Shown here: positions 3,110 to 18,695 of the stretch, one piece after another
How the letters are laid out: each line of letters begins with the position of its first letter
Position numbering within the stretch: position 1 is the stretch's first letter
IMG/VR virus record: IMGVR_UViG_3300007960_003098
Source: an uncultured virus (IMG/VR IMGVR_UViG_3300007960_003098)
Lineage: Duplodnaviria > Heunggongvirae > Uroviricota > Caudoviricetes
Strand: one strand, 5' to 3'
DNA: 20,000 nucleotides
Translations under genes and position numbers: made by a program
The notes under the pieces: generated by a model
Database searches by the model: none
Told to the model about the DNA's origin: nothing
What the model saw: only the letters and a program-made list of their open reading frames with translations

Positions 3110-3144
3110 TGAGGCTTGACTTTAGCCTCGTTTTTGTTTATAAT
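3110..3144 (+). promoter_or_regulatory. sigma70 promoter for the ligase gene, overlapping a terminator-like hairpin
   Basis: TTGACT(3116-3121)-17-TATAAT(3139-3144). The GAGGCT/AGCCTC stem (3111-3129) is followed by GTTTTTGTTT. Confidence 0.7.
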
Positions 3145-3167: not shown

Positions 3168-4517
3168 ATGTCTGCAAGCTGGATCAAATCGTTACAAGAA
3201 AGTGACTCTAGGCTTCACAAAGAAGAAGTGCTACGCAAAGCACTTGCCGCTAGCAAGCTGGGCAGTGAAAACGCAGACACGTTCTTGACCCTAGCAGGCA
3301 TGTGTTACAATCCTTATGTCACGTTTGGCGTACGCAAAGTATCTAATATCGAAACTTCTACTTCTCAAGAAAATCCTTGGGAAGACTTCAAAGAACTGCT
3401 AGACACATTAGATCACAGGCTAGTGACTGGCAACGCCGCACTTGATGCGGTTGCTGAAATGTCTGCTAGATTCTCAGTAGACGAGTGGAACAACTTCTGT
3501 GCCCCTGTCATTCGCAGAGACTTACGAGCAGGTGTTTCTGTCACAACTCTCAACAAGATTCTAAAAGGAACCGATTACGTTATCCCAGTGTTTGGTTGTC
3601 AACTGGCAACTAACTCTGAGGGCAGACCTGAAATGTCAGGTGTAAAACGTATCGAACCCAAACTTGATGGTGTGCGTGTTATCATGGAAGTAGTCAAAAA
3701 GATGTCTGGCTACGCTATCACTTGCTACTCACGTAACGGCAAAGAGTTTGAGAACTTTGGTCACATCACTGGTCAGATTAGTGAATACGCAGGTAAGATG
3801 ATCTCACTCATGGGTCCTTCTATCGGCAACATGGGTAATGGATTTGTCCTAGATGGTGAAGTGATCGGTAACACATTCCAAGAACTGATGCGTCAAGCAC
3901 GTAGAAAAGAAAACGTACAGGCTACAGATTCAGTATTCAATATTTTTGATATCATGCCCCTCAGTGATTTCCGTGAGGGTCATTGCAATGCACAATTGCG
4001 TAAGCGTATCGCAGTATTAGAGAACATAAGACCTCTAATCGACATGATGCCCAATGTAGAACTTTTACCCCATGTTAATATCGACTTAGATACTGAAGAG
4101 GGTAAGAGCGAACTTCAACGTTATGCCAATGCTCAAGTAGAAGCTGGCTTTGAAGGGATCATGATCAAAGAATTAGAGGCACCCTATGAGTGTAAGCGTA
4201 ACACTTTCTGGATGAAGTGGAAGCCTACAGCGACATTTGATCTGAAGGTCATAGCACTAGAAGAAGGTACTGGACGCAACAAGGGACGGTTGGGCGCACT
4301 TGTATGCCAAGGTGTAGATGACGGTAAAAACATCACTGTCAATGTCGGCAGCGGATTCAGCGATAATGATAGGGACACATTATGGGCTGATCATGTAGAA
4401 CTTGATTGCGTAGTGGGTAAGACTGCCGAAGTGTTGTGTGATGCTGTCACACAGAACCAAGATGGAACATACAGCCTCAGATTTCCTAGGTTCGTTCGTT
4501 TCCGTGATGATAAGTAA
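3168..4517 (+). CDS. lig: ATP-dependent DNA ligase
   Basis: Nucleotidyltransferase motifs: I EPKLDGVR, III LDGEV, IIIa FDI, IV EGIMIK, V WMKWK, OB-domain VGSGFSD and VI LRFPRF. AGGAG SD. Confidence 0.97.
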   Translation: MSASWIKSLQESDSRLHKEEVLRKALAASKLGSENADTFLTLAGMCYNPYVTFGVRKVSNIETSTSQENPWEDFKELLDTLDHRLVTGNAALDAVAEMSARFSVDEWNNFCAPVIRRDLRAGVSVTTLNKILKGTDYVIPVFGCQLATNSEGRPEMSGVKRIEPKLDGVRVIMEVVKKMSGYAITCYSRNGKEFENFGHITGQISEYAGKMISLMGPSIGNMGNGFVLDGEVIGNTFQELMRQARRKENVQATDSVFNIFDIMPLSDFREGHCNAQLRKRIAVLENIRPLIDMMPNVELLPHVNIDLDTEEGKSELQRYANAQVEAGFEGIMIKELEAPYECKRNTFWMKWKPTATFDLKVIALEEGTGRNKGRLGALVCQGVDDGKNITVNVGSGFSDNDRDTLWADHVELDCVVGKTAEVLCDAVTQNQDGTYSLRFPRFVRFRDDK

Positions 4518-6092: not shown

Positions 6093-8027
6093 ATGTTTTT
6101 AGCATATCTCACATTGATTACTGCACTGACTATCAGTGCCGTAGCCATTTATTATTCGGTATCAGGTCTTGCGGCAATCTTTGCCGCGGCGGTGATTCCT
6201 ATCATCATTATGGGCGGTGTCTTAGAGACAGCAAAGCTAGTAACAGCGGTCTGGTTACACAGATACTGGACTGAAGCCAAATGGTGGTTAAAGACGTATC
6301 TTAGCATTGCAGTTGCGGTATTGATGTTTATCACATCTATGGGTATTTTTGGATTCTTATCTAAGGCCCACATCGAACAAACAAGTTTAAGCACAGAACA
6401 AACTGCACAGATCGAAGCACTAGACGAAAACTTGGCACGTAGCCAATCTAGAGTAGATAGATGGAATGAAGAATTAACACGACTACTAAGCGGCGGTGCT
6501 GGTTTCCGTGTAGACGGCTTGCTACAAAGCAACCAAACTGAATTAAATAATCTGTACGACAGAATTGATACAGAAAAGAATAGAGAGCGTGAACTAGCGC
6601 AGACGCAGATAGAACAACAGAACCAGCGTGTAGCACAAGCAATTGAACGCAGAGATTCTGCCCTAGCAACATTAGGATCCAGACCTACTATAGGTGGTAA
6701 CAGTTGGGACACTAGAGAAAAATCTATTAGAGATGCCGAAGTAAGTGTGTCTGCGGCTGCACAACGTGAGATTAGAAGTATCAACAGCAATCTTAATACT
6801 AAGTTGGCTGAGATTGACCGTAGATATCAACCACAGATCGAACAGTTGACACAACGAATCGACGGGTTACGTAACGACACTACTGAGAAGACAGACGATG
6901 TAGACGCACGTATTAATGAACTAGAAGGTTTCGTTGAAGAAGAACAAACTAAGATGTCTACTGTACGTGAAGAAAAAGCAGTGTTAGAATCACAGTACAG
7001 AATGTTAGAGGCAGAAGTAGGACCCATTAAATACATCGCTGAGTTTATTTATGGCGAAGAAGCAGACAACAATCTTTTAGAAGAAGCAGTACGTTGGGTC
7101 ATCATTGTAATTATCTTTGTATTTGATCCTCTTGCTGTATTGTTATTGATTGCATCGCAGTACACATTTGAATTCCACAGAAAAGAATTTGGTATATTTG
7201 GATACAAAAAAGATCCTGAGCCAGAACCCGAGGACGACCCCGAATCAAAAAAGATTGAGCCAGAACCTGATACCTCTGAGGACGATTGGCCTACACCAGA
7301 TACAGGTGCATTTGGTCCGCCCACTAGCCCTGAAAAACCATTTGAAGGGCCTTTAAGATCAGGAGAAGCACCATATAATTACAATTTAAGAGAAGCAATA
7401 GAATCTATTCCAAACAACGATCCCGATGTTGATTGGGGATTTCTAAAACCTTCAATTGAAGAAGCACGCCAAGCAATCAAGAATTGGGAAGAAAGCAAAA
7501 AATTGCTCGGTGTCAAAGAGGAAGTCTCGGATGAAAATATTCCGGTGAGTGAGTCGGAGCCCGAGCCTGAGCCAGAAGTTGATATACAAGAATTTTTAGA
7601 TAAAGGATTGGTACCTACAGACGGTAAAACATATCAACGAGTTTTAGGTTCTGACTACATTATCGACTTAGAAGGCAAGTCAATTCATCAAGATGCGCTA
7701 AAACAACAGCACCCTGATCTATTCTTAAAGGCTGATGACGGTAAATCTGTTAATACCAGCTTTGGAACCGACTTCCCATTTATAGCAACAAAGGGTGATA
7801 TCTTTGTAAGAGTAGACCAGATGCCAAATCGTGTCTACAAATTCATGGGTCACAAATGGATCGAAGTAGAGAAAGAAAAATCTGACTCTTATCTATTTGA
7901 CGAAGAATACATCAAGCACTTGATCGCTAGGATCGAAACAGGCGAGTACGATATTGATCTGCTGTCCGACAAAGAGAAGGCTCAGATCGAAGACTATCTA
8001 CAAGCTAATCAACCCTCAAACGGGTAA
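6093..8027 (+). CDS. Membrane-anchored long coiled-coil protein with an acidic Pro/Glu-rich C-terminal region
   Basis: About three N-terminal hydrophobic helices, roughly 200 aa of heptad-rich sequence, a further TM segment (WVIIVIIFVFDPLAVLLLIAS) and PEPEPE repeats. Confidence 0.8.
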   Translation: MFLAYLTLITALTISAVAIYYSVSGLAAIFAAAVIPIIIMGGVLETAKLVTAVWLHRYWTEAKWWLKTYLSIAVAVLMFITSMGIFGFLSKAHIEQTSLSTEQTAQIEALDENLARSQSRVDRWNEELTRLLSGGAGFRVDGLLQSNQTELNNLYDRIDTEKNRERELAQTQIEQQNQRVAQAIERRDSALATLGSRPTIGGNSWDTREKSIRDAEVSVSAAAQREIRSINSNLNTKLAEIDRRYQPQIEQLTQRIDGLRNDTTEKTDDVDARINELEGFVEEEQTKMSTVREEKAVLESQYRMLEAEVGPIKYIAEFIYGEEADNNLLEEAVRWVIIVIIFVFDPLAVLLLIASQYTFEFHRKEFGIFGYKKDPEPEPEDDPESKKIEPEPDTSEDDWPTPDTGAFGPPTSPEKPFEGPLRSGEAPYNYNLREAIESIPNNDPDVDWGFLKPSIEEARQAIKNWEESKKLLGVKEEVSDENIPVSESEPEPEPEVDIQEFLDKGLVPTDGKTYQRVLGSDYIIDLEGKSIHQDALKQQHPDLFLKADDGKSVNTSFGTDFPFIATKGDIFVRVDQMPNRVYKFMGHKWIEVEKEKSDSYLFDEEYIKHLIARIETGEYDIDLLSDKEKAQIEDYLQANQPSNG

Positions 8028-8039
8028 GATGTTACCCAA

Positions 8040-8073
8040 TTTACTTGATTTATCTTTCTGACTATAATACAAT
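8040..8073 (+). promoter_or_regulatory. Putative sigma70 promoter
   Basis: TTGATT(8045-8050)-17-TACAAT(8068-8073). An alternative is TTTACT(8040-8045)-17-TATAAT(8063-8068). Confidence 0.5.
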
Positions 8074-8113: not shown

Positions 8114-8839
8114 ATGAAAGTTAATCAGTTGACGGCAGTTGCCCTAGTTGTAGCATCAGTTACGATGACCGGTTGCACTATGTTTGGTAAGAAAGCAGAA
8201 GAGGTAAACGTACCCAAAACTGAAGCGATTACTAGACAAAAACTCAGTACGTTTTTTGAAGACGACGGTATCAAAGTCAATTGGGAGTGTATCGACCGCA
8301 ATAATTGGACTCTTGGTATAACGTGTGCTGAGTCACAAATTGAATCTATTGAGGCTACTGTAACTGTACCGGCAAACGGCGGAACCAATTTCAATGGGTT
8401 CAGTTCATTCCAAGTAGGTCAACTAGAATCGCAAGGCATGATTTCTAGATTTATTAATGAAGAAATTACTACTGAACGGGTAGTCGATCTTATGGTAAAA
8501 AATGTTGAGAAGGCTGATGATACGTATCGCAATCCTATTGCAGGTACAGGTGTTGCTACACCGGGTCTTAGACTCCCCTCAGTCGTAGCACTGTCTAGCG
8601 GAGGTGAACCCGCTATGAATGACACTAGCACACCCAACATGAACTTTGCTGTCCGCTCTAATGTAAATGATACTGTGCGTAATTTGCAAACACAAGTGCG
8701 AGGATCATCGCAATCTATTCAACGAGGAATCGTTTTTCAAGTAGATAAAAAAGATGATCAGTTGCTACAGGTGACTGCCATTTGGCGCAGAGACAGAGCA
8801 GAAAATATTCAAAAGAAAATTTCCCCGTACTTTCAGTAA
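8114..8839 (+). CDS. Lipoprotein (LPP20-like)
   Basis: AGGAGG SD. Signal peptide with lipobox MKVNQLTAVALVVASVTMTG|C. Confidence 0.75.
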   Translation: MKVNQLTAVALVVASVTMTGCTMFGKKAEEVNVPKTEAITRQKLSTFFEDDGIKVNWECIDRNNWTLGITCAESQIESIEATVTVPANGGTNFNGFSSFQVGQLESQGMISRFINEEITTERVVDLMVKNVEKADDTYRNPIAGTGVATPGLRLPSVVALSSGGEPAMNDTSTPNMNFAVRSNVNDTVRNLQTQVRGSSQSIQRGIVFQVDKKDDQLLQVTAIWRRDRAENIQKKISPYFQ

Positions 8840-9793
8840 GTGAAAGTTATGCGAATTATTCTAGGAATAATTTTCGCACTCATAGCCTCTCCAGTAAATG
8901 CAATCGTTGTTATTGGAGAGGCTAAATCCTATGAGTTAGCAAAACAACAAGCCTTTAAACAAGCAATAGATTACGAAGTAGGAGTAATAGTTGACACCGA
9001 AAGGTTTGCGGTAGACAGCGAATTAGTACACAATCAAATACTCACGTATAGTGCTGGATACATTCTAGATTACAAAGTCATCAGTCACAGTGAAAGCAAC
9101 AACACACACACCGTAAAAATGGATGTGACTGTTGCTAGTTCTAAATTAAAAAACTTTCTACTGTCTCATGCACAATATACCGGAAAGTTTAATGGTGAGA
9201 ACATCAGGGCTCAGATAGATTATTACCAAAAGGGCCTAGTCGATGGGGACAAACTTGTTGCTAATACATTAAAGTATTTCCCCAGCCAAGCTATAAACAT
9301 CATTATGACCGAGTATGCAGTCACGTTAGATGAGCGCCGGAACTTTTATTTAGAGATTCCATATCAGATATCATGGGACCAAGAGTATCTGTCGGCTTTA
9401 GTAGAATTGCTGTCTGCATTTTCTTCCGATCAACCCAGTAGAAATTATGTAGATATCGATAAACAACGTTTGTATTTTTACGATACTATGTTTATGAATC
9501 AACTTCATAACAGAATGACCAGACTTGATTTTGTCGAAATAACACTGACTAATATGCGAGGTGAAACCTTACTAAATAGTTGTGTTCGGAATATTCTGTA
9601 TGATCCTATGAGAGGATGGAACGGTAATTTGGCATTATATAGCAAAACAGATAACAGCTTTAGGATCCATAACAGAAAAGTTATTAACAACTATGTTGTA
9701 GTTCCCATATCCAGCGAAATCTATAATGCTTTAGAAAGCGCCAATCAGATTGAACTACAGGTGACATCTAATAAAGATTGTCCGAAAAAATAA
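8840..9793 (+). CDS. Secreted protein with an LPP20/FlgT-N-like N-terminal domain
   Basis: Signal peptide ending SPVNA, followed by an AKQQAFKQAI..VG..VDTE..ILTYSAGYI..YKVI pattern. The start is GTG 8840 or ATG 8849. Confidence 0.65.
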   Translation: MKVMRIILGIIFALIASPVNAIVVIGEAKSYELAKQQAFKQAIDYEVGVIVDTERFAVDSELVHNQILTYSAGYILDYKVISHSESNNTHTVKMDVTVASSKLKNFLLSHAQYTGKFNGENIRAQIDYYQKGLVDGDKLVANTLKYFPSQAINIIMTEYAVTLDERRNFYLEIPYQISWDQEYLSALVELLSAFSSDQPSRNYVDIDKQRLYFYDTMFMNQLHNRMTRLDFVEITLTNMRGETLLNSCVRNILYDPMRGWNGNLALYSKTDNSFRIHNRKVINNYVVVPISSEIYNALESANQIELQVTSNKDCPKK

Positions 9794-9810
9794 CAAGATA
9801 AGTATTATAG

Positions 9811-11010
9811 ATGACAGAGAAAAAGAATTTGCACTGTTCTTTTTGTGGTAATCACAAAGACGCAGTTACAAAATTAATTGTTGGTGATGAAGTTGCTATC
9901 TGCTCTGATTGCGTGAGCCTGTGCCAGCAACTTATCGATGATGATAAGGGTCAGCCTACCGCTACTAAATCTACACCCAAATCTATTGATGCTGTAACTA
10001 TCCTGCGTCATTTGGACAAACACGTAGTCGGTCAATCTAGTGCTAAAATGGTATTAAGTGTTGCTATCGCTAATCATTACAAGCGAATCTTCAATCCTCC
10101 TCCTAAGGACCTAGAAATTTCTAAAGGTAATGTGATGTTGATCGGGCCTACTGGATCCGGTAAAACGTTGCTTGCTAAAAGCGTAGCACGATATCTAAAC
10201 GTGCCTTTTGTAGTAACTGATGCTACTAATCTTACTGAAGCGGGTTATGTGGGCGAAGACGTAGAAAGTATGTTAGGTTCCTTACTAGCCAAGGCTGAAG
10301 GAGATGTCGAGCTAGCACAGCGAGGAATCATCTTTATAGACGAGATAGACAAGATTGCACGTAAGAGCGAGAGTGCGTCTATAACACGTGACGTAAGCGG
10401 AGAGGGCGTTCAGCAGGCGCTTCTGAAGCTAATCGAGGGTACAGTATGTAGAGTCCCACAGCACGGTAAGCGTAAGCATCCTCAAGAACCTGTAGTAGAG
10501 ATCGACACTAGTAATATCTTGTTTATCGCCGGTGGCGCATTTGGTGGTTTAGAAGAAATCATCAAACGCAGAAGCAACGGGTCGTCCATTGGATTCGGGT
10601 CACAACTTCCTAACTATAGCACAGGGCATTTTGAGCATGTTAGACCAGACGATCTAGTGAAATTTGGAATGATACCCGAGTTTATAGGTAGATTCACTAC
10701 TACTATTCATGTAGAAGAATTAACTAAACTTGAATTAATCAAAGTGCTGACTGGCGTAAAGAATAATCTCATAGATCAGTACAAATATCTATTTGCTATA
10801 GATGAACTGACTCTTACTTTTACAGAAGATGCACTAGAAGAAATGGTGATGAACTGCATGAAACTCAAGACTGGGGCCCGGGGTCTACACACTGAAGTAG
10901 AACGTGCCTTGATCCCGCATATGTTTCACATTGCAAAATATAAAAAGAAAGGTATTACCGAGATAAATATTGATAAGGAATTAGTTTTGGATCCAAAACC
11001 TTTAATATAA
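9811..11010 (+). CDS. clpX: ATP-dependent Clp protease ATP-binding subunit ClpX
   Basis: C4 zinc finger (CSFC..CSDC), Walker A GPTGSGKT, pore-1 GYVG, Walker [19 protein letters not shown] loop, IGF loop, Arg finger EFIGRF and sensor II GARGL. Confidence 0.97.
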
Positions 11011-11013
11011 CAT

Positions 11014-11301
11014 ATGAGAAAAAATCACATAAAATTTTATAACGACAAGAAAAAATATCAACAAGAAAAGCCTTTCGGCTTACAAGTAACAGTATTCGAC
11101 AATAATGTAGAGCAAGCGTTACGCAAGTTAAAAAAGAAAGTATCTAACGCGGGGTTGTTACAAGAAGTTAAAAAACGTGAATACTATGAAAAGCCTACTC
11201 AAACAAGAAAATTAAAAAAGGCTATGGCTGTAAAGCGTGAACAAAAGCGCATTGATAAAGAAAGATTAAAACCAAAACGCGGTTACAAAGCAGACTATTA
11301 A
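11014..11301 (+). CDS. rpsU: Phage-encoded 30S ribosomal protein bS21 with an N-terminal extension
   Basis: V.V..NNVEQALRKLKKKV..AGLL.EVKKREYYEKPT..RK.KK..A.KR is the S21 signature. Confidence 0.92.
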   Translation: MRKNHIKFYNDKKKYQQEKPFGLQVTVFDNNVEQALRKLKKKVSNAGLLQEVKKREYYEKPTQTRKLKKAMAVKREQKRIDKERLKPKRGYKADY

Positions 11302-11312
11302 CCCAATTTCAC

Positions 11313-11350
11313 TTGATATTTTATATTTTATCATTATATAATGATAAATA
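11313..11350 (+). promoter_or_regulatory. Tandem promoter signals for hsp20 (sigma70-like plus late-type TAAATA)
   Basis: TTGATA(11313-11318)-18-TATAAT(11337-11342), and TAAATA at 11345-11350. Confidence 0.5.
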
Positions 11351-11353
11351 CTA

Positions 11354-11435
11354 ATATGATTAGATAGGTTTCTAATCATATGGATGCCGAAAGGGTCCAA
11401 ACTTAAATCTTGCTTAATAAAGGAGAAACATTATG
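11354..11435 (+). ncRNA. ROSE-like RNA thermometer (cis-regulatory 5' UTR of hsp20)
   Basis: HP1 is ATATGATTAGA/TCTAATCATAT (11 bp, 11354-11381). HP2 is GGAT-G-CC-GAAA-GG-GTCC (11382-11398). HP3 is UCUU-G-CUU-AAUA-AAG-GAGA (11408-11426), in which UUGCU with a bulged G pairs to the SD, the ROSE hallmark. It sits directly before an sHSP gene. Confidence 0.8.
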
Positions 11436-11888
11436 ACAAGCAATATTCCAACCCTACGTCTAAGTTCTTTAGACATTCCTTCAATTCATAAATTCGGTGT
11501 AGGTTTCGATTCAATCTTTGATGAATTCAACCGCATTGCATCCTTATCTGGTAAGGATAACTATCCTCCATACAATATCATTAAAGAGTCTGATGATGCA
11601 TACATCATCGAACTAGCAGTGGCTGGCTTCAAGCAAGAAGAAGTCGAGATTGAAATGGAGAAGAATGTTCTTACAGTTAAGTCAGTAGAATCTGAAGAAC
11701 CAAAAATCGTACCTGAATATCTACACAAAGGCATCAGTGCTAGAGCGTTTACTCGTTCTTTCACTCTAGCTGATCACGTAGAAGTTCTAGGTGCTACTAT
11801 GCAAGACGGTATTCTAGCAATCCAGTTACAGCGCAAAGTTCCTGAAGCGTTGCAACCCAGAAAGATTGCAATCGAATACACTAAATAG
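11433..11888 (+). CDS. hsp20: Small heat shock protein (Hsp20/IbpA-like)
   Basis: Motifs VGFDSIF, YPPYNI, IELAVAGF, YLHKGISARAFTRSFTLAD, A.MQDGIL and the C-terminal IXI (KIAI). AAGGAG SD. Confidence 0.96.
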   Translation: MTSNIPTLRLSSLDIPSIHKFGVGFDSIFDEFNRIASLSGKDNYPPYNIIKESDDAYIIELAVAGFKQEEVEIEMEKNVLTVKSVESEEPKIVPEYLHKGISARAFTRSFTLADHVEVLGATMQDGILAIQLQRKVPEALQPRKIAIEYTK

Positions 11889-11894
11889 TATAAT
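11866..11894 (+). promoter_or_regulatory. Promoter for clpS embedded in the 3' end of hsp20
   Basis: TTGCAA(11866-11871)-17-TATAAT(11889-11894), with a late-type TAAATA (11882-11887) inside the spacer. Confidence 0.6.
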
Positions 11895-11910
11895 AGAGAC
11901 ATAAAAAACG

Positions 11911-11955
11911 AACGTAGTTGTGGAAGCAACTCGTTGCGGAAGCAACTACGTTTTT
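11911..11955 (+). terminator. Structured RNA element: terminator-like long hairpin that can alternatively fold as two tandem GGAA hairpins
   Basis: AACGTAGTTG/CAACTACGTT forms a 10-bp stem running into a T-tract. The internal direct repeat GTTG(T/C)GGAAGCAACT occurs at 11917-11931 and 11933-11947. Confidence 0.6.
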
Positions 11956-11977
11956 CTCATAAACTTGGAGTAATAGT

Positions 11978-12292
11978 ATGTCAACAAATCCCGATTTTGA
12001 AACACAGCAAAAAATCAAGCCTAATTATGCATTACAGGAACCGCCTCTATATCGGGTGATTTACATCAATGATGAGGTCACTACTATGGAATTCGTAGTA
12101 GACTCGCTGTGTGAATATTTTAACTATAATCCTGACACTGCGTCTAATATCACTACTGATATTCACCAGCACGGTAGTGCTATCGTAGCAGTCCTTCCAT
12201 ACGAGATCGCTGAACAAAAGGGAATTGAAGTTACTTTACAAGCACGTTCTAAGGGATATCCTCTACAGATCAAAGTAGAGGCTGAAGATTAA
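11978..12292 (+). CDS. clpS: ATP-dependent Clp protease adaptor ClpS
   Basis: PPLYRVIYINDEVTTMEFVV..L..YF, IHQHGSAIV..PYEIAEQK and AR..GYPL. GGAG SD at 11967-11970. Confidence 0.95.
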   Translation: MSTNPDFETQQKIKPNYALQEPPLYRVIYINDEVTTMEFVVDSLCEYFNYNPDTASNITTDIHQHGSAIVAVLPYEIAEQKGIEVTLQARSKGYPLQIKVEAED

Positions 12293-13017
12293 GTATTAAT
12301 TGATATTCGTTTAGCGTAAAAGTTCTTAACGTTCTTTTCTACTAAGGGATTAGTAATAGCTGTAATATCATTCTTTCTTGGAACCAGTAGAGTTGCTTCT
12401 ACTGGTTTTCCATATGACCCGTAAACCCAATGACTGACTTTACTTTCTGTGTCAGCATTTAAAATAGTATCTAAAGGGATTTGCATAGGGGTGTATTCTG
12501 GTATTTGTCCAAAATAGCAATTTACGTTTGGAACTGCACTAGTGACTATAATGATATGTTTTACGTCCACATGACGCTGGAGCTTTTCTATTGTTTGATG
12601 TAAAAAGCCCATATCATCCATTCTGTATTGATAGTATTTTAATTCATCTATTGATATAGATTTTCCGGGTTCGTGAGCGTTTTCCCAGCAATTAGAACCG
12701 ATGACAGCAACACCGTCTACAAGAACAACATTGTGATGTAACAATACCAAATTAGGGACAGCTTGAGTTATGTTAAGTATCTCTGCCGTGCGCTGGTTAA
12801 TGTTCTCAGTATCAGAATATTCTGCTAATCCAGGTGTATAGAAAATACCCTGATAAAGAGTGCTAAGGTGTAACAGTGTTTGGTGAACTGTGCGAAGATC
12901 GGAACTGATGTTACCAGACAATAAGCAGTACAAACTTGTAGGTTTGCCCTCCCAATTGAAACTGTCTTCAGGGTCCAGATTTAAATCACTGATAACATCA
13001 AATCCGATTTCGATCAT
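12289..13017 (-). CDS. Calcineurin-like metallophosphoesterase homolog with degenerate metal ligands
   Basis: Motif order is preserved but the ligands are altered: VISDLNL (DxH), LSGNI (GD), PGLAEY (GNHE), VTSAVP (TH.P) and HWVYGSY (GHxH). Confidence 0.75.
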   Translation of the reverse strand: MIEIGFDVISDLNLDPEDSFNWEGKPTSLYCLLSGNISSDLRTVHQTLLHLSTLYQGIFYTPGLAEYSDTENINQRTAEILNITQAVPNLVLLHHNVVLVDGVAVIGSNCWENAHEPGKSISIDELKYYQYRMDDMGFLHQTIEKLQRHVDVKHIIIVTSAVPNVNCYFGQIPEYTPMQIPLDTILNADTESKVSHWVYGSYGKPVEATLLVPRKNDITAITNPLVEKNVKNFYAKRISINT

Positions 13018-13026
13018 AATGGAAAC

Positions 13027-13335
13027 TTACTTAGCTACAGTCAGTTTCTTTTTACCTGTTGTTTTGGCTGGCGCCTTTTTAGTAGCCGGTTTCTTAGCAG
13101 GGGCTTTAGCAGGGGCTTTAGCAGGGGCTTTAGCAGGGGCTTTGCTCTCTGTCTTTGGTGCCCGTTTTGCAGGGGCTTTTTTCACAGGAGCTTTTGCGAC
13201 TGGATCGACTGGTTTTGGAGCAGGAGCCGGTTCAGGGACATCTGCTAAATCTTCATCTTTTTCTAGTCTATTATAAAAGTATAAGCCTGCTAATGCTACG
13301 ACTACTAATAAACCAATAATTATTTCGGGTGACAT
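13027..13335 (-). CDS. Small membrane-anchored protein with a Lys/Ala/Pro-rich (histone H1-like) tail
   Basis: AAGGAG SD, N-terminal TM segment IIIGLLVVVALAGLYFY and KAPA repeats. TAAATA lies upstream on the minus strand (13363-13368). Confidence 0.8.
   Translation of the reverse strand: MSPEIIIGLLVVVALAGLYFYNRLEKDEDLADVPEPAPAPKPVDPVAKAPVKKAPAKRAPKTESKAPAKAPAKAPAKAPAKKPATKKAPAKTTGKKKLTVAK
13094..13141. repeat. Tandem repeat, 4 x 12 bp TTAGCAGGGGCT (encodes KAPA x4 on the minus strand)
   Basis: Exact copies start at 13094, 13106, 13118 and 13130. Confidence 0.95.
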
Positions 13336-13404
13336 GTATTTCTCCTTATCAATTCCGCATTGTATTTATCTGGGTTAGATTGTTATTATGTTTTTCCGTC
13401 TTCC

Positions 13405-13434
13405 TTGACAGGGAAAAGGATATGCTATTATAAT
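13405..13434 (+). promoter_or_regulatory. sigma70 promoter for the SprT-like gene
   Basis: TTGACA(13405-13410)-18-TATAAT(13429-13434), immediately followed by TAAATA. Confidence 0.65.
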
Positions 13435-13473
13435 AAATAAAAGTGAACGATTCTATAATAAAGGAGAAATCGA

Positions 13474-13977
13474 ATGACTCCAAAGGAAGCCCGAGAGCAA
13501 CTTAAGGAATGGATGCAAGAAGATTTACCTAGTATTACAAAACAAAAAAGATACATTTTCAGACCTACTCAACGTGAAATCAATCACACTTATAACGTGC
13601 TGAATCTAGCACTCTATAAAGGCAAGCTAAAAAGACCTAAAATAAGAACTGCATCTAGAAAAAGATATTGGGGTCTATGCCAAGCCTTAAATCATGAACC
13701 TATGAACTATAAATCTAAATCGAACTGTGAACTTATCCTGAGCGATAAATGGTTCTGTAGACAATGGTTTATTGATACTCTAGCACATGAAATGGCTCAT
13801 CAATATCAATGGGACATCGACGGACCAAAAAGAGTAGCAGAAGGAAAAGAAGCAATCATGTCACATGGTCCTAGCTTTTTTAAACACAAACCAACGCTAG
13901 ATCATTATGGATTGAACTTGAAAATTACTCACAAAATAAAAACATGGTTCAAATATCAAAGTTTAACTAAGTGCTAA
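13474..13977 (+). CDS. SprT-like zinc metalloprotease
   Basis: TLAHEMAH (HExxH), a downstream SHGPSF and an upstream Y..LN..LY.G.L..P pattern. AAGGAG SD. Confidence 0.88.
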   Translation: MTPKEAREQLKEWMQEDLPSITKQKRYIFRPTQREINHTYNVLNLALYKGKLKRPKIRTASRKRYWGLCQALNHEPMNYKSKSNCELILSDKWFCRQWFIDTLAHEMAHQYQWDIDGPKRVAEGKEAIMSHGPSFFKHKPTLDHYGLNLKITHKIKTWFKYQSLTKC

Positions 13978-13996
13978 CAATACGATAAATACTGAT

Positions 13997-15553
13997 ATGG
14001 ACCATTATTTAACTAGAAACATACTTGATCAACTAGATTTTCTGGCAGAAGACGTTACTCTTAACGCTAGCCAGATCAATAAGTACCAGTGGAGATTCGA
14101 TAAGTTTATCGACATGATTCGTTCTGGTGATCCTTTCTTTACAGTAGATAGAGAAGAAGTTATTGCAGACCCAAGCGAAGCCGATAGATTTCAAGCATTA
14201 AAAGACGAAGATCAATTCAAAGGTAGCTTGAAACTAAAATTAGATTCAGGTGAAGAGATCGGTTTAAACAAACTCTTAAAGACAGCAGACTTAGGTGGAC
14301 AAGCCGCTACTGGTGATCCTGAATCAGCAGAAGAAGTAGGTAAAGAATCTGCACTGTTAAAGCCTTCGCAGATCGGCATTACTGACAGAGAGATTCCTGC
14401 TAGTGAGTTAGGTACTGAGATCGTCAACAATGAAGTATTAAACTCTACCGAGTATGGTAAAGTAGTAGTTAACATGGCTCAAGAGATTATGAATGGTAGG
14501 AATCCTGTAATCCCGGACAGCGTTCCTGCAAAAGTAAGAGCATCTATACACGACTATGCAGGTGAGTACTTAGGTGTGTTAGCGATGATCATAGGTACAT
14601 CACGTTTCCCAAGACGTAGAAGTTTTGAAGCGTGGTTAGGTGGTAGCGTTAGCGATCTTACTATCTTTTTCCCTACTGCGGCGAATACTAATATTGCTGA
14701 TAGCTTTGCTACTATCAAAAACAAAAAGACTAAGCACAACGTAAACATCTCAAGCAAAGGTAAAGGTGGCGGTGCGCCACCAAGTATTAGCGGACTCAAA
14801 GTTCCTGAGCATCTAAAAGAGAATCCTGATTACGAAGCCGCGTTAAAATTTATTGAGATTTGTCAAGCAGACGCTCCTTTACCTACACCTAAAACAGTAT
14901 CACAAGTGTTCTATGGTATGAATGTGTTAGCACGTTATGTGCCTGATTCTATACCTAAAGAATTCAAGAATTTCTTACCGTGGACTAATCAAGTCATCCA
15001 AGAAGTCAACGATTCGCTAAAAGCGTTTAAGACTTCACAGCCAATCGATCTTCCTAAATATGCATCACTGTGGGAAGGAGTAGATTTCAGTAAACCTTCT
15101 AGCGACGGTGGTAAACTAACATACGTAGTAAAGAAAGCAGTAATGGAAGCTGTCAACGAGGGCAAAGCATTACCTGACTTCCAAAGTGTCATCTTAGAAA
15201 TCTTAGACATGAACTTTATTCAGCAGTATGCTGACTTGTCTACAAAGAAAGGTCCTAAGGTAATGACGTTTGCTACTCAGTGGCCTGCTAAACTAGAGGG
15301 TAAAGTTACACTAGAATCTAAATCAGGTGCAACGGATCCAACTAAGGGTGGTTTCTCATTCAAACTTGCTAACACAGCACCAAAGACAGATATTCCCGAG
15401 CCTGACGAGAGCGGCGTAGATGATAAAGAAATTACATCAAAAGCAGATTTAAAGAAACAAGCTAAAAAGATCACTAAAGGTGGAAGTAAAGAAGTCACTG
15501 ACATCTTTAAGAAACCTGAACCCTCGACCGGTATCAGCAGAAAAAAACGATAA
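13997..15553 (+). CDS. Large hypothetical protein, possibly virion-associated, with a PD-(D/E)xK-like core
   Basis: 518 aa. The N-terminus ...LDFLAE resembles a prohead-protease cleavage site. The central EYLG..FPTAAN..IADSF....ISSKG.GG resembles a restriction-endonuclease-like fold (inference). Preceded by TAAATA-5 nt-ATG. Confidence 0.6.
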   Translation: MDHYLTRNILDQLDFLAEDVTLNASQINKYQWRFDKFIDMIRSGDPFFTVDREEVIADPSEADRFQALKDEDQFKGSLKLKLDSGEEIGLNKLLKTADLGGQAATGDPESAEEVGKESALLKPSQIGITDREIPASELGTEIVNNEVLNSTEYGKVVVNMAQEIMNGRNPVIPDSVPAKVRASIHDYAGEYLGVLAMIIGTSRFPRRRSFEAWLGGSVSDLTIFFPTAANTNIADSFATIKNKKTKHNVNISSKGKGGGAPPSISGLKVPEHLKENPDYEAALKFIEICQADAPLPTPKTVSQVFYGMNVLARYVPDSIPKEFKNFLPWTNQVIQEVNDSLKAFKTSQPIDLPKYASLWEGVDFSKPSSDGGKLTYVVKKAVMEAVNEGKALPDFQSVILEILDMNFIQQYADLSTKKGPKVMTFATQWPAKLEGKVTLESKSGATDPTKGGFSFKLANTAPKTDIPEPDESGVDDKEITSKADLKKQAKKITKGGSKEVTDIFKKPEPSTGISRKKR

Positions 15554-15591
15554 AAAGAGTTGGCTCTGTTAAAAGTGTTTAAATACAATTA

Positions 15592-16497
15592 ATGTATAAA
15601 CATGTAGAAATCGAGTACTCTGATCCATCAGGCAAACTCTCGCCCATCATTTTAAGATATGAGATCAACGACACTAACATTGCCCAGCGATGGGCTAGTC
15701 TGTTGGATTATTCTATAGAGAATTATCAGATTGATGATCCAGAAAGGATGTATGGTTTCAACGATGAAGCGACTGAAAAACTTAATGCTATTAACGCTAT
15801 TAATAATTGTGTTGACACTATCAATGCTTACAGACCTGGGTTTGTTGAGCGTAGGATAGATGAAACTATTGACCAAGATACACTAAACTACTTGCATCAT
15901 ATATTTGAAGTGTATCATGGAATGTTGAATGAACCGCATGAGTTTTTCCAAGATGCACCAAAAGAAGTTCAACGTGCTTTAGGTAAGTTAAACTTAGAAG
16001 TTCACAGGTGTGAATCTATGGCAAAAGACAGTGTACGCAAGATGTTACCAACGCATTTTGTTACTTATTATGACATGCCACGTGGCCCTGAATTCAGAAC
16101 ATTAGAAATGGAAGATTATGAGCATTTTACAGATTTTTATGAATTTGGAACAATTTACCTTCTGTATGTAGAGATAGGAAAAACTCTACAAGACTTATCT
16201 ATTGATGACGACCATCATATCTCAGCAGAAGCATACAAACCCTTTAGACACTATGCTAGTGATTTTGTGATTAGATATTTTAGTTCTTCACATCAAAACT
16301 GGTTATTTCATAAAAAGATTTTTAGAAAGCATTACGAAGAAAACAAAGAGTTTTATGATGCTAGATATGATTATAGTCATCCATACAATAGACCGGGCAA
16401 CATACCTTTAGCTAAATTAAAGACGCATCTATCACAGCAAGAAGTGGTAGAAGGTATCAGAGACAGGGCGTGTGTAACTAACATAAAAGTTTGGTAA
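15592..16497 (+). CDS. Hypothetical phage protein
   Basis: 301-aa ORF with LNYLHHIFE and LNLEVHRCE His-rich helices. Preceded by TAAATA-6 nt-ATG. Confidence 0.75.
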   Translation: MYKHVEIEYSDPSGKLSPIILRYEINDTNIAQRWASLLDYSIENYQIDDPERMYGFNDEATEKLNAINAINNCVDTINAYRPGFVERRIDETIDQDTLNYLHHIFEVYHGMLNEPHEFFQDAPKEVQRALGKLNLEVHRCESMAKDSVRKMLPTHFVTYYDMPRGPEFRTLEMEDYEHFTDFYEFGTIYLLYVEIGKTLQDLSIDDDHHISAEAYKPFRHYASDFVIRYFSSSHQNWLFHKKIFRKHYEENKEFYDARYDYSHPYNRPGNIPLAKLKTHLSQQEVVEGIRDRACVTNIKVW

Positions 16498-16506
16498 CCT
16501 TTTATC

Positions 16507-16535
16507 TTGCTTTTAGTTTAATACTATAGTATCAT
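16507..16535 (+). promoter_or_regulatory. Putative sigma70 promoter upstream of the EWH-family gene and clpP
   Basis: TTGCTT(16507-16512)-17-TATCAT(16530-16535). Confidence 0.5.
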
Positions 16536-16560
16536 AAGTTTTTAATATAGGAGATATGTT

Positions 16561-16842
16561 ATGGCGGAAGTAAAATTTATCCAAAACGAATGGCACCGAG
16601 TTTTTGTTAAAAAGACAATGGTAGCATCTACAACCGATTGGGAAGGTAACGAGGTTGTATCAGAAGAAGATTTGGTAACATACCTTCTAGAAGGTACTAC
16701 CGGTGATGACGAGAAAGACGACATTTGCTGGCAACAAGTAGCAGAAGCAGAATGTGTTGGAGATGAAGAACCCGACTGGTGGTCTGATCGCAAAGGTTGT
16801 ACAGAAATCGATTACGAAATCGTTGACGAAAACGAAGAATAA
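16561..16842 (+). CDS. Acidic hypothetical protein (EWH...WxDRKG family), paralog of 5505-5777
   Basis: AGGAG SD. Contains NEWH and [14 protein letters not shown]. Confidence 0.8.
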
Positions 16843-16855
16843 ATTAGAGGATTAT

Positions 16856-17446
16856 ATGGCATTAGTACCAATTGTATTAGAACAAACTAGCCGCGGTGAA
16901 CGTAGCTATGACATTTACTCACGTTTGCTACGTGATCGTGTTATCTTGCTAGAAGGTGAAGTACATGATCAGATGGCTAATCTTATCGTAGCACAGTTGC
17001 TATACCTAGAAAGCGAGAATAGCGAAGCAGATATCTTTCTGTATATCAACTCGCCAGGCGGTAGCGTAACAGCAGGTATGGCTATCTATGATACTATGCA
17101 GTTCATCAAGCCCGATGTTTGCACTATCGCTATGGGACAAGCCTGTTCTATGGGCAGTCTGTTAGCGCAAGCAGGAGCGGCAGGTAAGCGTAAGATTCTG
17201 CCCCACGCTCGACACATGATTCACCAACCATCAGGTGGTGCAAGAGGCCAAGCAACTGACATGGAAATCCAAGTCAAAGAAATCTTGGAGATGAAGCGTT
17301 ATCTCACGCAGATTTATGTAGACCATAACTCAGCAGGTAAACAGTTTGACGAGATTGCTAAAGACATGGAGCGTGACAACTTTATGTCAGCACAGCAAGC
17401 AGTAGACTACGGCCTTGCAGACGAGATCGTTACTAGTAGAGAGTAA
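16856..17446 (+). CDS. clpP: ATP-dependent Clp protease proteolytic subunit ClpP
   Basis: Start reassigned to ATG 16856 (MALVPIV, GAGG SD). Motifs [11 protein letters not shown] and YINSPGGSV; catalytic Ser in QACSMG, His in MIHQP and Asp in ERDNF. Confidence 0.97.
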
Positions 17447-17473
17447 ACTCAAACTCCGCACATAAATATAAGT

Positions 17474-17968
17474 ATGCGGGCAAATGAGTTTATAGAAAAA
17501 TTCAAAACATGGAAAAAAGAACGGGAGACTCCTCCCGTTCCACCACCTCATAATCTTTTTCATGCCACACTCAAAGACAATTTACCCAACATAATGAAAC
17601 ACGGCTTATTAAGAAGCGGTGTATCAAAAATGTACAAGCAATCTGAATCAGGTGTTGTATATCTTACAACTAGTCCTAATATTGCATCATCAATGATCAA
17701 CACTGAAAGTGATATAATAAACAAAAATTTATTAAAACAATCATCTAATCAAGGGGTGATCTTAGAAATAGATGTGACTAAATTAGATCCTAAAAAATTC
17801 AGAGAAGACGAGTTGCTTCCTGCTAGTTGGATTAAACCAGAATACACTTATAAATATGAAGGTGACATTCCTCCAAATGCAATAAAAGTAAGGGCAGAAT
17901 TTTCAGTTGATGTTGATCCATATTATAGACGCCATCAGATAAGAGCAATTAGACCGAGTAAACCATAA
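17474..17968 (+). CDS. ADP-ribosyltransferase-fold protein (Tpt1/KptA NAD-binding-like) with a capsid-targeting-like N-terminus
   Basis: LFHAT......IMKHGL, GVVYLTT....A, VILEID...L and Y.YEGDIPP..I. The N-terminal MRANEFIE resembles the T4 internal-protein CTS (MKTYQEFIAE). Confidence 0.65.
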   Translation: MRANEFIEKFKTWKKERETPPVPPPHNLFHATLKDNLPNIMKHGLLRSGVSKMYKQSESGVVYLTTSPNIASSMINTESDIINKNLLKQSSNQGVILEIDVTKLDPKKFREDELLPASWIKPEYTYKYEGDIPPNAIKVRAEFSVDVDPYYRRHQIRAIRPSKP

Positions 17969-18258
17969 TGAGTTACAATACTAATACTGAATATGCTATT
18001 GTAGGAGAAATTAGAATTTTTCCATACGACTATGAACCCGAAGGATGGATGCTGTGCGATGGTAGAGAATTGAAAGCGATTGAATACCAAGCATTGTATG
18101 CATTACTAGGTAGTCGATTTGGCGGAGATCCTATACCAAAAGATGTTCCTTTTTCTGAAATGGAAAATTTTAAGTTTAGAATACCTAAAATTCGTGCATA
18201 CAAAGACGGACGCAGATATTTTATAGCAACTAGCGGCCAATTCCCTACACACTGTTAA
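17968..18258 (+). CDS. Stand-alone phage tail-collar domain protein
   Basis: VGEIRIF....PEGWMLCDGREL....YQALYALLG.RFGGD...F.IP, with C-terminal YFIA..G.FP. Confidence 0.88.
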   Translation: MSYNTNTEYAIVGEIRIFPYDYEPEGWMLCDGRELKAIEYQALYALLGSRFGGDPIPKDVPFSEMENFKFRIPKIRAYKDGRRYFIATSGQFPTHC

Positions 18259-18612: not shown

Positions 18613-18695
18613 CGTAAGTTGTTGATTTTAAATGGGTAAAAAGTTGAAAAAAATGGATAAAAAGGCTTGACATTTACCCAAATAACCCGTATAAT
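18613..18695 (+). promoter_or_regulatory. Consensus sigma70 (early-type) promoter with A-tracts and an upstream IHF-consensus site; copy 2 of a dispersed repeat
   Basis: TTGACA(18667-18672)-17-TATAAT(18690-18695), with TAAGTTGTTGATT at 18615-18627. Confidence 0.9.

Follow-up and report, generated by a model that had tools for sequence, protein, structure and literature searches.

The DNA considered here is a stretch of 20,000 nucleotides from an uncultured virus (IMG/VR record IMGVR_UViG_3300007960_003098), which we call the window. Between 8.1 and 17.4 kb it contains genes for the unfoldase ClpX, ribosomal protein bS21 (rpsU), a small heat-shock protein (sHSP; hsp20), the N-degron adaptor ClpS, and the protease ClpP (Table 1). 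The best overall explanation, to which we assign a probability of about 0.7, is that this region is a conserved accessory island of a jumbo phage and gives the phage its own protein-quality-control machinery, in which ClpXP and ClpAPS proteases accompany chaperones that are gated by leaders resembling ROSE-type RNA thermometers. The components are known in phages, and phage Clp and chaperone genes are already in print. What appears to be new is the contiguous and conserved island, its pairing with a conserved dnaJ-clpA module, a variable chaperone slot, and the ROSE-like leaders. The thermometer-like leader that is common to the phage chaperone genes is the most testable novelty.

The Clp and chaperone island

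IMG/VR contains 451 relatives of the window ClpX, of which the best 80 loci, with ClpX proteins 55-74% identical, were examined. Locus tallies count distinct ClpX DNA only (68 of the 80 loci). In nearly all 80 loci, tblastn reveals the same order: a ligase gene upstream, then ClpX-bS21-Hsp20-ClpS, a convergent phosphoesterase-fold gene, SprT, and ClpP. Hsp20 and ClpS are each found in 48 of the 48 loci with at least 5.5 kb past ClpX, the phosphoesterase-fold gene in 45 of them, and bS21 in 42, with no bS21 match in the other six. ClpP is present in 32 and a SprT-like gene in 22 of the 35 loci with at least 9.5 kb past ClpX, and the upstream ligase in 41 of 43 loci with at least 8 kb before ClpX. 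Because this order recurs in related viral contigs, the arrangement is not due to chance. A preliminary description of the window had reported clpX, bS21, hsp20, and clpS as contiguous and co-oriented, with an intact ClpP about 4.6 kb further on and a SprT protease and a degenerate phosphoesterase in between. This arrangement is confirmed: the four genes occupy positions 9811-12292, the rpsU start is 3 nucleotides past the clpX stop, and 4.56 kb separate the end of clpS from the start of clpP (1.2-5.7 kb in relatives, median 3.2 kb). The gene order, whose conservation across large phages that description had left to be surveyed, is thus retained among the relatives.

The ClpX protein of the window aligns to solved ClpX with 398 bits. 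The alignment includes a C4 zinc finger (Pfam zf-C4_ClpX, 49.5 bits), Walker A and B motifs, a GYVG pore-1 loop, the RKH loop (GKRKHPQ), the IGF loop for ClpP docking (SSIGFGS), and GARGL, to which we assign their presumed roles. The bS21 protein has approximately 20 additional N-terminal residues, and its residues 31-91 align to the 71-amino-acid bacterial bS21 of solved ribosomes.

The clpP open reading frame (ORF) extends over 16754-17446, and the likely true start is the ATG at 16856 (MALVP...), because the alignment to solved ClpP proteins begins there, at the position of the mature N-terminus of bacterial ClpP. This alignment (273 bits) includes GQACSMG, MIHQP, and ERD, which provide an intact context for what we take to be the Ser/His/Asp triad. 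The score against the equivalog model TIGR00493 (298.6 bits) is slightly under its cut-off of 308.6. As judged from their sequences, ClpX and ClpP look fully functional, and a phage-built ClpXP, as had been suggested in the preliminary description, is therefore plausible, given the docking loop on ClpX and the catalytic triad in ClpP. In four loci (L038, L040, L043, and L044), a second, divergent ClpP-like gene is located just 5' of the canonical clpP. The divergent proteins are 26-28% identical to the window ClpP, and a copy in record G008 (114962-115483) matches Pfam CLP_protease with 95 bits.

The position between rpsU or clpX and hsp20 is a variable slot. In 13 of the 80 loci it contains a full-length dnaK (NF001413, 978 bits; cut-off 648), namely in L021, L023/L024, L033, L035, L043, L044, L051/L052, L057/L058, L066, and L073, and each of these dnaK genes is preceded by a ROSE-like leader of its own. 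In L035, L043, and L044, hsp20 directly follows dnaK and has no leader of its own, and it is dnaK that carries the ROSE-like leader. In one locus (L070, 11440-13555), the slot is filled by groES-groEL behind a ROSE-like leader, and iscU, peptide deformylase, and iscA-like genes fill it in two loci. These varied contents imply that the island gathers functions in protein maturation and folding. HSP70 is found in one of five relative records searched.

The slot of L040 (11190-14462) comprises an alpha/beta-hydrolase-like ORF, a PGDYG protein, IscU, peptide deformylase, a P-loop kinase-like ORF, and IscA, and that of L038 (11341-13747) is similar by eye. Single loci also contain extra minus-strand ORFs between island genes (L075, 11947-12627; L065, 1769-2260). 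The N-termini of these ORFs (..YVYAY..YIGKG..) resemble GIY-YIG homing endonucleases by eye, and the ORFs match no Pfam family.

Three relatives are complete according to CheckV, with lengths of 524 kb, 364 kb (with direct terminal repeats), and 352 kb. All three encode a major capsid protein (MCP) of the T4-type Gp23 family, at approximately 330 bits, which is found in none of 14 control cellular genomes. All three also encode Terminase_6C, the C-terminal domain of T4-type terminases, and an S77 prohead protease whose gene adjoins the MCP gene. Because the complete relatives carry a T4-type MCP, terminase, and prohead protease, the lineage is classified from its genes as a T4-like group of aquatic, uncultivated jumbo phages. 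The phage origin of the contig, which the preliminary description assumed while allowing that the contig might prove cellular, is upheld by these genes and by the terminal repeats of one relative. Sequences near-identical to the stretch (60-95% of sampled words) occur in 15 DNA runs from nine studies, which are labelled as freshwater, estuary, marine, aquaculture, and oyster metagenomes.

Among GenBank phages, neither megablast with positions 9811-17446 nor tblastn with the 518-amino-acid ORF of the window reveals a match. The best ClpX matches in GenBank phages are 44-51% identical (Atu_ph07, phage G, Lak phages, and an Acinetobacter phage), and the ClpS matches are at most 41% identical. Cellular ClpX proteins from many phyla have 43-52% identity to the window ClpX among the matches listed in a pattern-limited scan. 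Because the phage ClpX proteins are 55-74% alike, compared with these lower values for the cellular matches listed, the phage Clp genes seem to be an old clade of their own, for which no donor can be named.

Record G002 (524,565 bp) contains two diverged copies of the whole clpX...clpP island (L051, L061, L089, and L090). It also contains two dnaJ-clpA pairs and two ClpP genes, along with a single Gp23 capsid gene, a single terminase, and a single S77 protease. The doubling is either a genuine large duplication in a megaphage or the product of a chimeric assembly.

ClpS and its probable ClpA partner

The ClpS protein of the window aligns to the core of Escherichia coli ClpS (residues 6-101, with a numbering offset of 3). 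Its scores are under the cut-offs of all NCBIfam equivalog models for ClpS (best 76.8 bits, cut-off 149). In E. coli ClpS, we take residues N34, D35, T38, M40, and H66 to form the N-degron pocket and E79, E82, and K84 to contact ClpA. These positions are retained in the window ClpS, in which D36 is replaced by E. Across 60 distinct phage ClpS proteins, N31, D32, T35, H63, E76, and E79 are invariant. The E. coli clpS gene presumably adjoins clpA; the phage gene is instead next to hsp20 and clpX.

The preliminary description observed that there is no clpA within the window, which family scans bear out, and, treating ClpS as being without a ClpA partner of its own, suggested that it may act on the ClpAP of the host. 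This premise of an orphan ClpS is most likely wrong. Searches for the Clp_N domain reveal an ORF of 758-767 amino acids in all three complete relatives, with two such ORFs in the 524-kb record, and also a match in G006, a 128-kb fragment from the nearest subclade to the window. A protein search adds a ClpA in G008, a 136-kb fragment. The nearest IMG/VR record (G001), which is only 4.7 kb in length, has no Clp_N match. For the ClpA proteins of the relatives, the best NCBIfam model is ClpA, which matches end to end with 781-786 bits, under the equivalog cut-off of 993. They also align to residues 4-751 of E. coli ClpA (597 bits), including the region of the ClpP-docking (IGF-type) loop. Viral contigs in IMG/VR contain 315 ClpA relatives, and in all 75 loci with room for it, a DnaJ-like gene (J-domain and DnaJ_C) in the same orientation is the immediate 5' neighbor of clpA. 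In the genomes of relatives, this conserved dnaJ-clpA pair is located away from the clpX island. ClpA is the only Clp_N-domain gene found by the Clp_N search, which revealed no ClpB-type gene in the relatives.

A predicted complex of ClpS and the ClpA N-domain from one phage record has an ipSAE of 0.84, versus 0.01 for the best control; of 157 solved complexes, 116 attain that mark, as do 2 of 215 mismatched pairs. At least 95% of contacts are shared among runs, the partners have pLDDT values of at least 89, and the modelled contacts on ClpS are residues 73-80 and the N-terminal extension. Because similar complexes have been solved and the pass might reflect memory, the model demonstrates likeness to the textbook complex and not binding. 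ClpS most likely feeds a phage ClpAP. The lineage, in our reading, has both a ClpXP and a ClpAPS of its own; ClpS might act on host ClpA as well, but this need not be invoked to explain the gene.

The leader of hsp20

The approximately 75 nucleotides preceding hsp20 comprise, throughout the clade, an ATAAATA motif, hairpin I, a linker, and an invariant CUUGCUU sequence. In hairpin I, the core (GAUGCCGA..UCGGGUC) is conserved, whereas the outer stem varies. The CUUGCUU sequence can pair with the Shine-Dalgarno (SD) sequence AAGGAGA, with one G unpaired and one G-U pair. In the window, hairpin I is GGAUGCCGAAAGGGUCC, and the SD hairpin is UCUUGCUU/AAGGAGA, with the unpaired G. The Hsp20 protein itself scores 120 bits with the IbpB model (NF008618; cut-off 207) and 107 bits with the IbpA model (cut-off 212), both under the cut-off, and its C-terminus (...KIAIEYTK) contains an I-A-I motif.

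An alignment of 54 distinct leaders, which omits three loci in which hsp20 is directly after dnaK, supports the two hairpins in different ways. The UUGCU columns are invariant in all 54 aligned 5' untranslated regions (UTRs). On the MAFFT alignment, RNAalifold recovers hairpin I, in which 7 of 9 pairs have compensatory changes, but not the SD hairpin, which was tested instead as part of a named structure. In this named two-hairpin structure, 93.8% of cells are paired, compared with 38-63% when the partner columns are slid. Its covariation score is 0.309, versus at most 0.111, and none of 500 shuffles reaches 0.309. A covariance model (R1) built from the leaders has 71 matches in 1.12 Mb, all on the plus strand and all directly 5' of hsp20, dnaK, or groES, and none is near clpA-dnaJ. 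Ten dnaK leaders among these matches lay outside the training set. The window leader scores 64.5 bits with this model.

The top Rfam match of the window leader is ROSE_3 (RF02523), which matches over its full length at 11378-11438 with 20.9 bits and an E-value of 0.018. This match appears only when 171 nucleotides are searched alone, and an Rfam scan of the whole window at E-values up to 1 yields no matches. With a permissive threshold, full-length ROSE_3 matches of 22.3-33.1 bits abut the hsp20 start in 8 of 11 relatives, and one of these eight loci has a second ROSE_3 match before dnaK.

The leader shares many features with the short ROSE-like thermometers of Pseudomonas ibpA, as these are presented in the available text of Krajewski 2013 (PMC3669281). 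These features are a leader of approximately 60 nucleotides with two hairpins, located directly before an IbpA-like sHSP gene, a U(U/C)GCU anti-SD sequence opposite the SD in the 3' hairpin, imperfect SD pairing with an unpaired G and a G-U pair, and an unpaired AUG. Hairpin I also fits the ROSE_3 consensus (GAUGCCGA..UCGGGUC). Unlike bacterial ROSE elements, the leader is phage-encoded and scores below the Rfam gathering threshold, and it is located after sigma-70-like or ATAAATA motifs, whereas bacterial ibpA genes are sigma-32 dependent. In contrast to bacterial ROSE_3, the phage leaders are also found before dnaK and groES, and those of the window's subclade have an additional 5' hairpin. 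Judging by these features, the leader looks as if it works like a ROSE-type leader, while not being a member of the family by the Rfam threshold, and it probably descends from one. The preliminary description had spoken of RNA-level regulation within the module and gave no detail. Two conserved RNA structures, the hsp20 leader and a stem-loop between hsp20 and clpS, could correspond to it.

Contigs from four metatranscriptome runs provide the available expression data, and the parts that they leave uncovered (most of clpX, rpsU, and the 3' half of clpS) are uninformative. Contigs identical to the window span hsp20 and part of its leader in three runs from three studies, covering 11378-11909 in one run, 11424-11898 in another, and 11367-12021, in four pieces, in the third. 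Further RNA-library contigs match 8430-8815, 12900-13404, and 14079-14482, and clpP is covered by contigs of a variant strain. Where contigs end near 11348-11378 and 11898-11909, this suggests transcript ends only weakly. Pieces matching 10232-10271 and 17087-17127 were rejected, as they continue as unlike sequence and correspond to clpX and clpP of other organisms.

Alternatives, published systems, and other features of the window

In the mechanism that we propose, ClpXP and ClpAP would both be assembled around one and the same phage ClpP, and ClpS would dock on the N-domain of phage ClpA and hand over N-degron substrates. Hsp20, along with DnaJ and either phage or host DnaK, might act as holding and refolding chaperones while phage proteins are made in a burst, and bS21 would join host 30S subunits. 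More speculatively, the preliminary description envisaged host defense proteins and cleaved virion proteins as substrates, and a retuning of ribosomes by bS21. The two-hairpin ROSE-like 5' UTR would gate translation of hsp20, and of dnaK or groES where these are present. Its UUGCU sequence would pair imperfectly with the SD sequence, and the ribosome-binding site would open on warming. Alternatively, opening might follow the titration of a repressor, for instance the sHSP itself, by aggregates.

Several observations weigh against this explanation. At the gathering threshold of ROSE_3 (43 bits), none of 18 loci passes, and all scores are in the range of 20.9-33.1. The SD hairpin is near-invariant, with changes on both sides in 0 of 7 pairs, and therefore exhibits conservation and no compensatory change. 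Because DNA carry-over is possible, the RNA-library contigs do not prove transcription, nor do contigs define transcript ends. The window phage's own clpA is presumed from its relatives, and no ClpA is found in a 264-kb record (G005; 74% complete) or in three fragments that are 27-37% complete. The L/F-transferase Aat is found in none of five relatives searched, so any secondary N-degrons would depend on the host. Nor do cellular ClpX proteins name a host, as those listed in the pattern-limited scan are at most 52% identical and come from mixed phyla.

One alternative concerns the leader, which might be a protein operator (for example, one through which the sHSP represses its own mRNA and those of other chaperones until aggregates titrate it) or a site for an RNase or for processing, and which would then sense proteotoxic load and not temperature. 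An operator is favored by the strong sequence conservation of hairpin I (GAUGCCGA...UCGGGUC), which extends over the clade and to the ROSE_3 consensus, and by Pseudomonas leaders that are still heat-responsive after removal of hairpin I, according to the available text of the Krajewski study (PMC3669281). It is further favored by the finding that E. coli IbpA represses its own translation via stem-loops in the 5' UTR, is titrated by aggregates, and needs an IX(I/V) motif, as stated in the available part of another report (PMC10410725), as well as the C-terminus of the window Hsp20 (...KIAIEYTK) and the presence of one leader type before three different chaperone genes. However, UUGCU/SD pairing with an unpaired G and a G-U pair is described as a hallmark of thermosensing in the same Pseudomonas text (PMC3669281), and because E. 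coli combines thermosensing with protein binding, the two readings are compatible. We consider a purely load-sensing leader possible but rather unlikely. Slightly better odds, although still short of even, can be given to the tentative idea of an autonomous phage heat-shock regulon, in which the shared ROSE-like leader would gate the slot chaperones and sense temperature, aggregate load via the sHSP, or both, with ClpS-ClpA-ClpP and ClpX clearing host or misfolded proteins. If this idea is correct, the phage-borne leader would make the response independent of the sigma-32 response of the host.

Other alternatives concern the Clp proteins. The proposal that the phage has no ClpA, and that ClpS either redirects host ClpAP toward N-degron substrates or blocks its other substrates while phage ClpXP works apart, is consistent with the failure to find clpA in the window and in the 264-kb record, and with the available text of Iyer et al. 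2021 (PMC7824862), in whose proposal host ClpAP receives its targets from phage ClpS. Cross-binding to host ClpA is also possible, as the residues for ClpA contact are generic. Nevertheless, this proposal seems improbable in view of the ClpA genes in all three complete relatives and in a fragment of the nearest subclade, the 315 phage ClpA relatives in viral contigs, and the confident model of the phage ClpS/ClpA-N pair, a textbook pair. Moreover, the invariant N-degron pocket speaks for delivery of substrates, not for blocking alone. It is very improbable that ClpP is a head-maturation protease and that ClpX, ClpS, and Hsp20 serve virion assembly only. The PHROG matches of the ClpP ORF are annotated as head maturation protease (phrog_94, 170 bits), and the prohead protease is the commonest neighbor of phage bS21 in the available text of Chen et al. 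2022 (PMC9723584). However, the three complete relatives have a separate T4-type S77 prohead protease beside the MCP gene, and thus ClpP is most likely not the head-maturation protease of the lineage. In addition, ClpP scores 313 bits on a cellular ClpP model versus 100.6 (cut-off 120) on a model of ClpP-related head-maturation proteases, and Pfam and PHROG scans find no capsid genes nearby. Least probable of all, with only a slight chance, is that the stretch is cellular or, on a misclassified contig, a heat-shock locus newly acquired from a host, and has no phage-specific role. All the named genes are typical of bacteria, and IMG/VR labels the relative G008 as a provirus. Against this, contigs as long as 524 kb that carry T4-type structural genes and terminal repeats have the same order, the phage ClpX proteins are 55-74% identical to each other versus at most 52% to cellular ClpX among the matches listed, most flanking ORFs have no family or PHROG families only, and megablast against GenBank phages gives no match.

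A phage-owned proteostasis system would have several implications. Phage Clp and chaperone genes are usually catalogued singly as auxiliary genes, whereas in this jumbo-phage lineage, which is widespread in aquatic habitats, they are grouped in a deeply conserved island. This island and the second conserved dnaJ-clpA pair together argue for coordinated, phage-owned proteostasis rather than scattered cargo. If the leaders function as proposed, they would be the first elements in phage genomes to be assigned to the ROSE class of RNA thermometers, in a virus that carries both the sensor and the effectors of proteostasis. Translation would then be the level at which the phage senses temperature or aggregate load, and the leaders might be useful as compact parts for synthetic biology. 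They are short, conserved, and directly testable. These findings correct the orphan-ClpS idea, and they also offer a clean system for learning what a virus degrades through the N-degron pathway.

The closest published gene set is that of the Agrobacterium jumbo phage Atu_ph07, which the available text of Attai et al. 2018 (PMC6102473) lists as ClpX, ClpP, ClpS, ClpB, Hsp20, and a ClpA that adjoins DnaJ (gp292/gp293), and which is suggested there to manage protein stress in infection. The Atu_ph07 ClpX is 48% identical to that of the window. The Atu_ph07 genes are dispersed over 490 kb (gp2, gp292, gp676, and gp708), in contrast to the contiguous clpX-rpsU-hsp20-clpS with clpP nearby, and they include a ClpB, whereas the Clp_N search revealed no ClpB-type gene in relatives of the window. 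The available part of the account describes neither a bS21 linkage nor an RNA element. Iyer et al. 2021 list ClpP, ClpS, ClpA, ClpX, SprT, Hsp20, and DnaJ in jumbo phages, in the text available (PMC7824862). The association of bS21, Hsp20, and Clp is already published as a tally in the available text of Chen et al. 2022 (PMC9723584), in which Hsp20 (n=127) and two ATP-dependent Clp protease pVOGs (n=50 and 47) occur within ten genes of phage bS21. In the five clades described in that text, bS21 is on the reverse strand inside a structural block and the predicted hosts are Bacteroidetes, whereas the window bS21 follows clpX in an accessory island and the window genes are preceded by strong SD sequences. 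The available portion of the paper does not deal with gene order, with the logic of ClpS and ClpA, or with UTR elements.

Moraphages, as covered in the available text of Perez-Hernandez et al. 2025 (PMC12619734), come from freshwater and are jumbo phages whose structural viral orthologous groups (VOGs) are T4-like; ClpA is among their 26 near-core VOGs. DnaJ is common in them, and DnaK and HSP20 occur in some. They have genomes of 200-307 kb and Bacteroidota as predicted hosts, and the available text does not mention S21 and contains "Clp" twice. The lineage resembles the E. coli ClpS-ClpAP system (1mbx, 1r6o, and 7uiv) in its ClpS core and in the full-length ClpA of relatives, which has both an N-domain and a loop of the IGF type. 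Unlike in E. coli, all components are phage-encoded and diverged (ClpA, 781 bits, below 993), and Aat was not found in relatives. A literature search found no paper that combines phage-encoded ClpS, ClpA, and the N-degron, and a search of titles and abstracts found no description of a ROSE-type element in a phage genome.

Table 1. Positions of genes and candidate regulatory elements in the window
Feature	Position	Strand	Basis or remarks
ATP-dependent DNA ligase	3168-4517		Family scans
644-amino-acid ORF	6093-8027		Tetraspanin and DUF4407, ~20 bits, below cut-off; PHROG "virion structural protein", 22 bits
Candidate sigma-70-like promoter ahead of o8114-o8840-clpX-rpsU	8040-8068	+	TTGATT ... 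TATAAT at 8063-8068; putative
Two conserved ORFs, no assigned function	8114-8839, 8840-9793	+	Directly 5' of clpX; no Pfam or PHROG family
clpX, AAA+ unfoldase with N-terminal zinc-binding domain	9811-11010	+	NF003745, 514 bits (cut-off 359); TIGR00382, 483 bits (cut-off 371)
rpsU, bS21	11014-11301	+	TIGR00030, 67.3 bits (cut-off 28.95)
Candidate hsp20 promoters	11313-11350	+	TTGATA-18-TATAAT, 11313-11342; clade-conserved ATAAATA, 11344-11350
hsp20 5' UTR	11355-11432	+	Additional subclade-specific hairpin, 11355-11383, then ROSE-like element
hsp20, IbpA/B-like sHSP	11433-11888	+	Pfam HSP20, 70 bits
Candidate sigma-70-like clpS promoter	11866-11894	+	TTGCAA-17-TATAAT; -10 box immediately 3' of the hsp20 stop
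Conserved stem-loop between hsp20 and clpS	11910-11958	+	TTTTT follows in the window
clpS, N-degron adaptor	11978-12292	+	Pfam PF02617, 89.1 bits (cut-off 23)
Metallophosphoesterase-fold gene, convergent	12289-13017	-	AlphaFold2 (AF2) model, pLDDT 90.9; Foldseek
Small Ala/Pro/Lys-rich protein	13027-13335	-	N-terminal hydrophobic segment; KAPA-repeat tail
Candidate sigma-70-like promoter of SprT-like gene	13405-13434	+	TTGACA-18-TATAAT; consensus 12/12
SprT-like zincin	13474-13977	+	Pfam PF10263, 26.5 bits (cut-off 25.6), marginal; HEMAH motif
Three ORFs, no assigned function	13997-15553, 15592-16497, 16561-16842	+	No family in scans
clpP, self-compartmentalized serine protease without propeptide	16856-17446	+	NF001368, 312.6 bits (cut-off 249)
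Tail-collar-domain protein	17968-18258		Family scans

The stem-loop between hsp20 and clpS is found in most of the clade. An uninterrupted stem of 8-13 base pairs is present in 55 of 59 distinct spacers, with stem sequences that differ between loci, and the fold z-score is -2 or lower in 55 of the 59. The stem ends 14-33 nucleotides before the clpS ATG, and a T-rich tail occurs in only 21 of the 59. The structure may be a partial (leaky) terminator, a 5' stabilizer, or a processing site. The same spacers frequently contain candidate promoters, as TATAAT is directly 3' of the hsp20 stop in 36 of 59 and TTGnnn-N15-19-TATAAT is likewise present in 36 of 59.

The ATAAATA motif is found in 45 of 60 distinct regions upstream of hsp20, compared with 172 of 5000 random 120-nucleotide windows, and is typically located 7 nucleotides before the hairpin core. 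Between 8114 and 11301, no gap is large enough for another promoter. Within 9500-17700, the number of promoter-like sequences (24, versus a mean of 23.1) is not above that of shuffles, nor is the number of terminator-like sequences (8 versus 4.8). The three best promoter matches are all intergenic, before hsp20, clpS, and the SprT-like gene; this is suggestive, and only their location counts. Near-consensus TTGAC(A)-17/18-TATAAT sequences are present in intergenic gaps with -10 boxes at 3139-3144, 8063-8068, 13429-13434, and 18690-18695, and strong AGGAG SD sequences precede genes. These promoters and SD sequences hint at a host that uses both, which is at odds with the Bacteroidota predicted for similar published lineages. 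The sigma-70-like promoters, the strong SD sequences, the IbpA-like sHSP, and the best match of bS21 to a 71-amino-acid bacterial bS21 were not used as host evidence.

The convergent gene downstream of clpS encodes a protein that has no Pfam match and was folded along with 54 relatives. Foldseek searches with the model yield 102 PDB matches at E-values of at most 0.001, with PptH (E-value 1e-6, probability 1.0, TMq 0.66), MPPED2, Mre11, and Dbr1 at the top (E-values to 1e-4). By eye, its metal-ligand motifs are D11-L-N13, G35-N36, and G63-L-A-E66. The canonical metallophosphoesterase motifs are, we assume, DxH, GD, and GNH(D/E). Because the fold matches while most canonical motifs are replaced, the earlier label of degenerate phosphoesterase is fair, and the modelled product is likely a pseudo-enzyme or a divergent enzyme.

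The window has a G+C content of 34-43%, and nearly every ORF is on the plus strand. Approximately half of the ORFs have no family match in Pfam, PHROG, and NCBIfam scans. The 644-amino-acid ORF is retained upstream of clpX in most relatives, and homologs of the two ORFs directly 5' of clpX are upstream of ClpX in most related loci. The second of these, at 8840-9793, has a signal-like segment at its N-terminus. Atlas neighbors of the 13997-15553 product are viral hypothetical clusters only. RNA-library contigs over 12900-13404, which cover the gene for the small Ala/Pro/Lys-rich protein, occur in two runs, one of which has a 24-nucleotide deletion variant at 13094. No tRNA was found in the window, and in some relatives Rfam reveals tRNA genes a few kb 5' of clpX (L055, 338-410, 54 bits; L018, 354-428, 51 bits).

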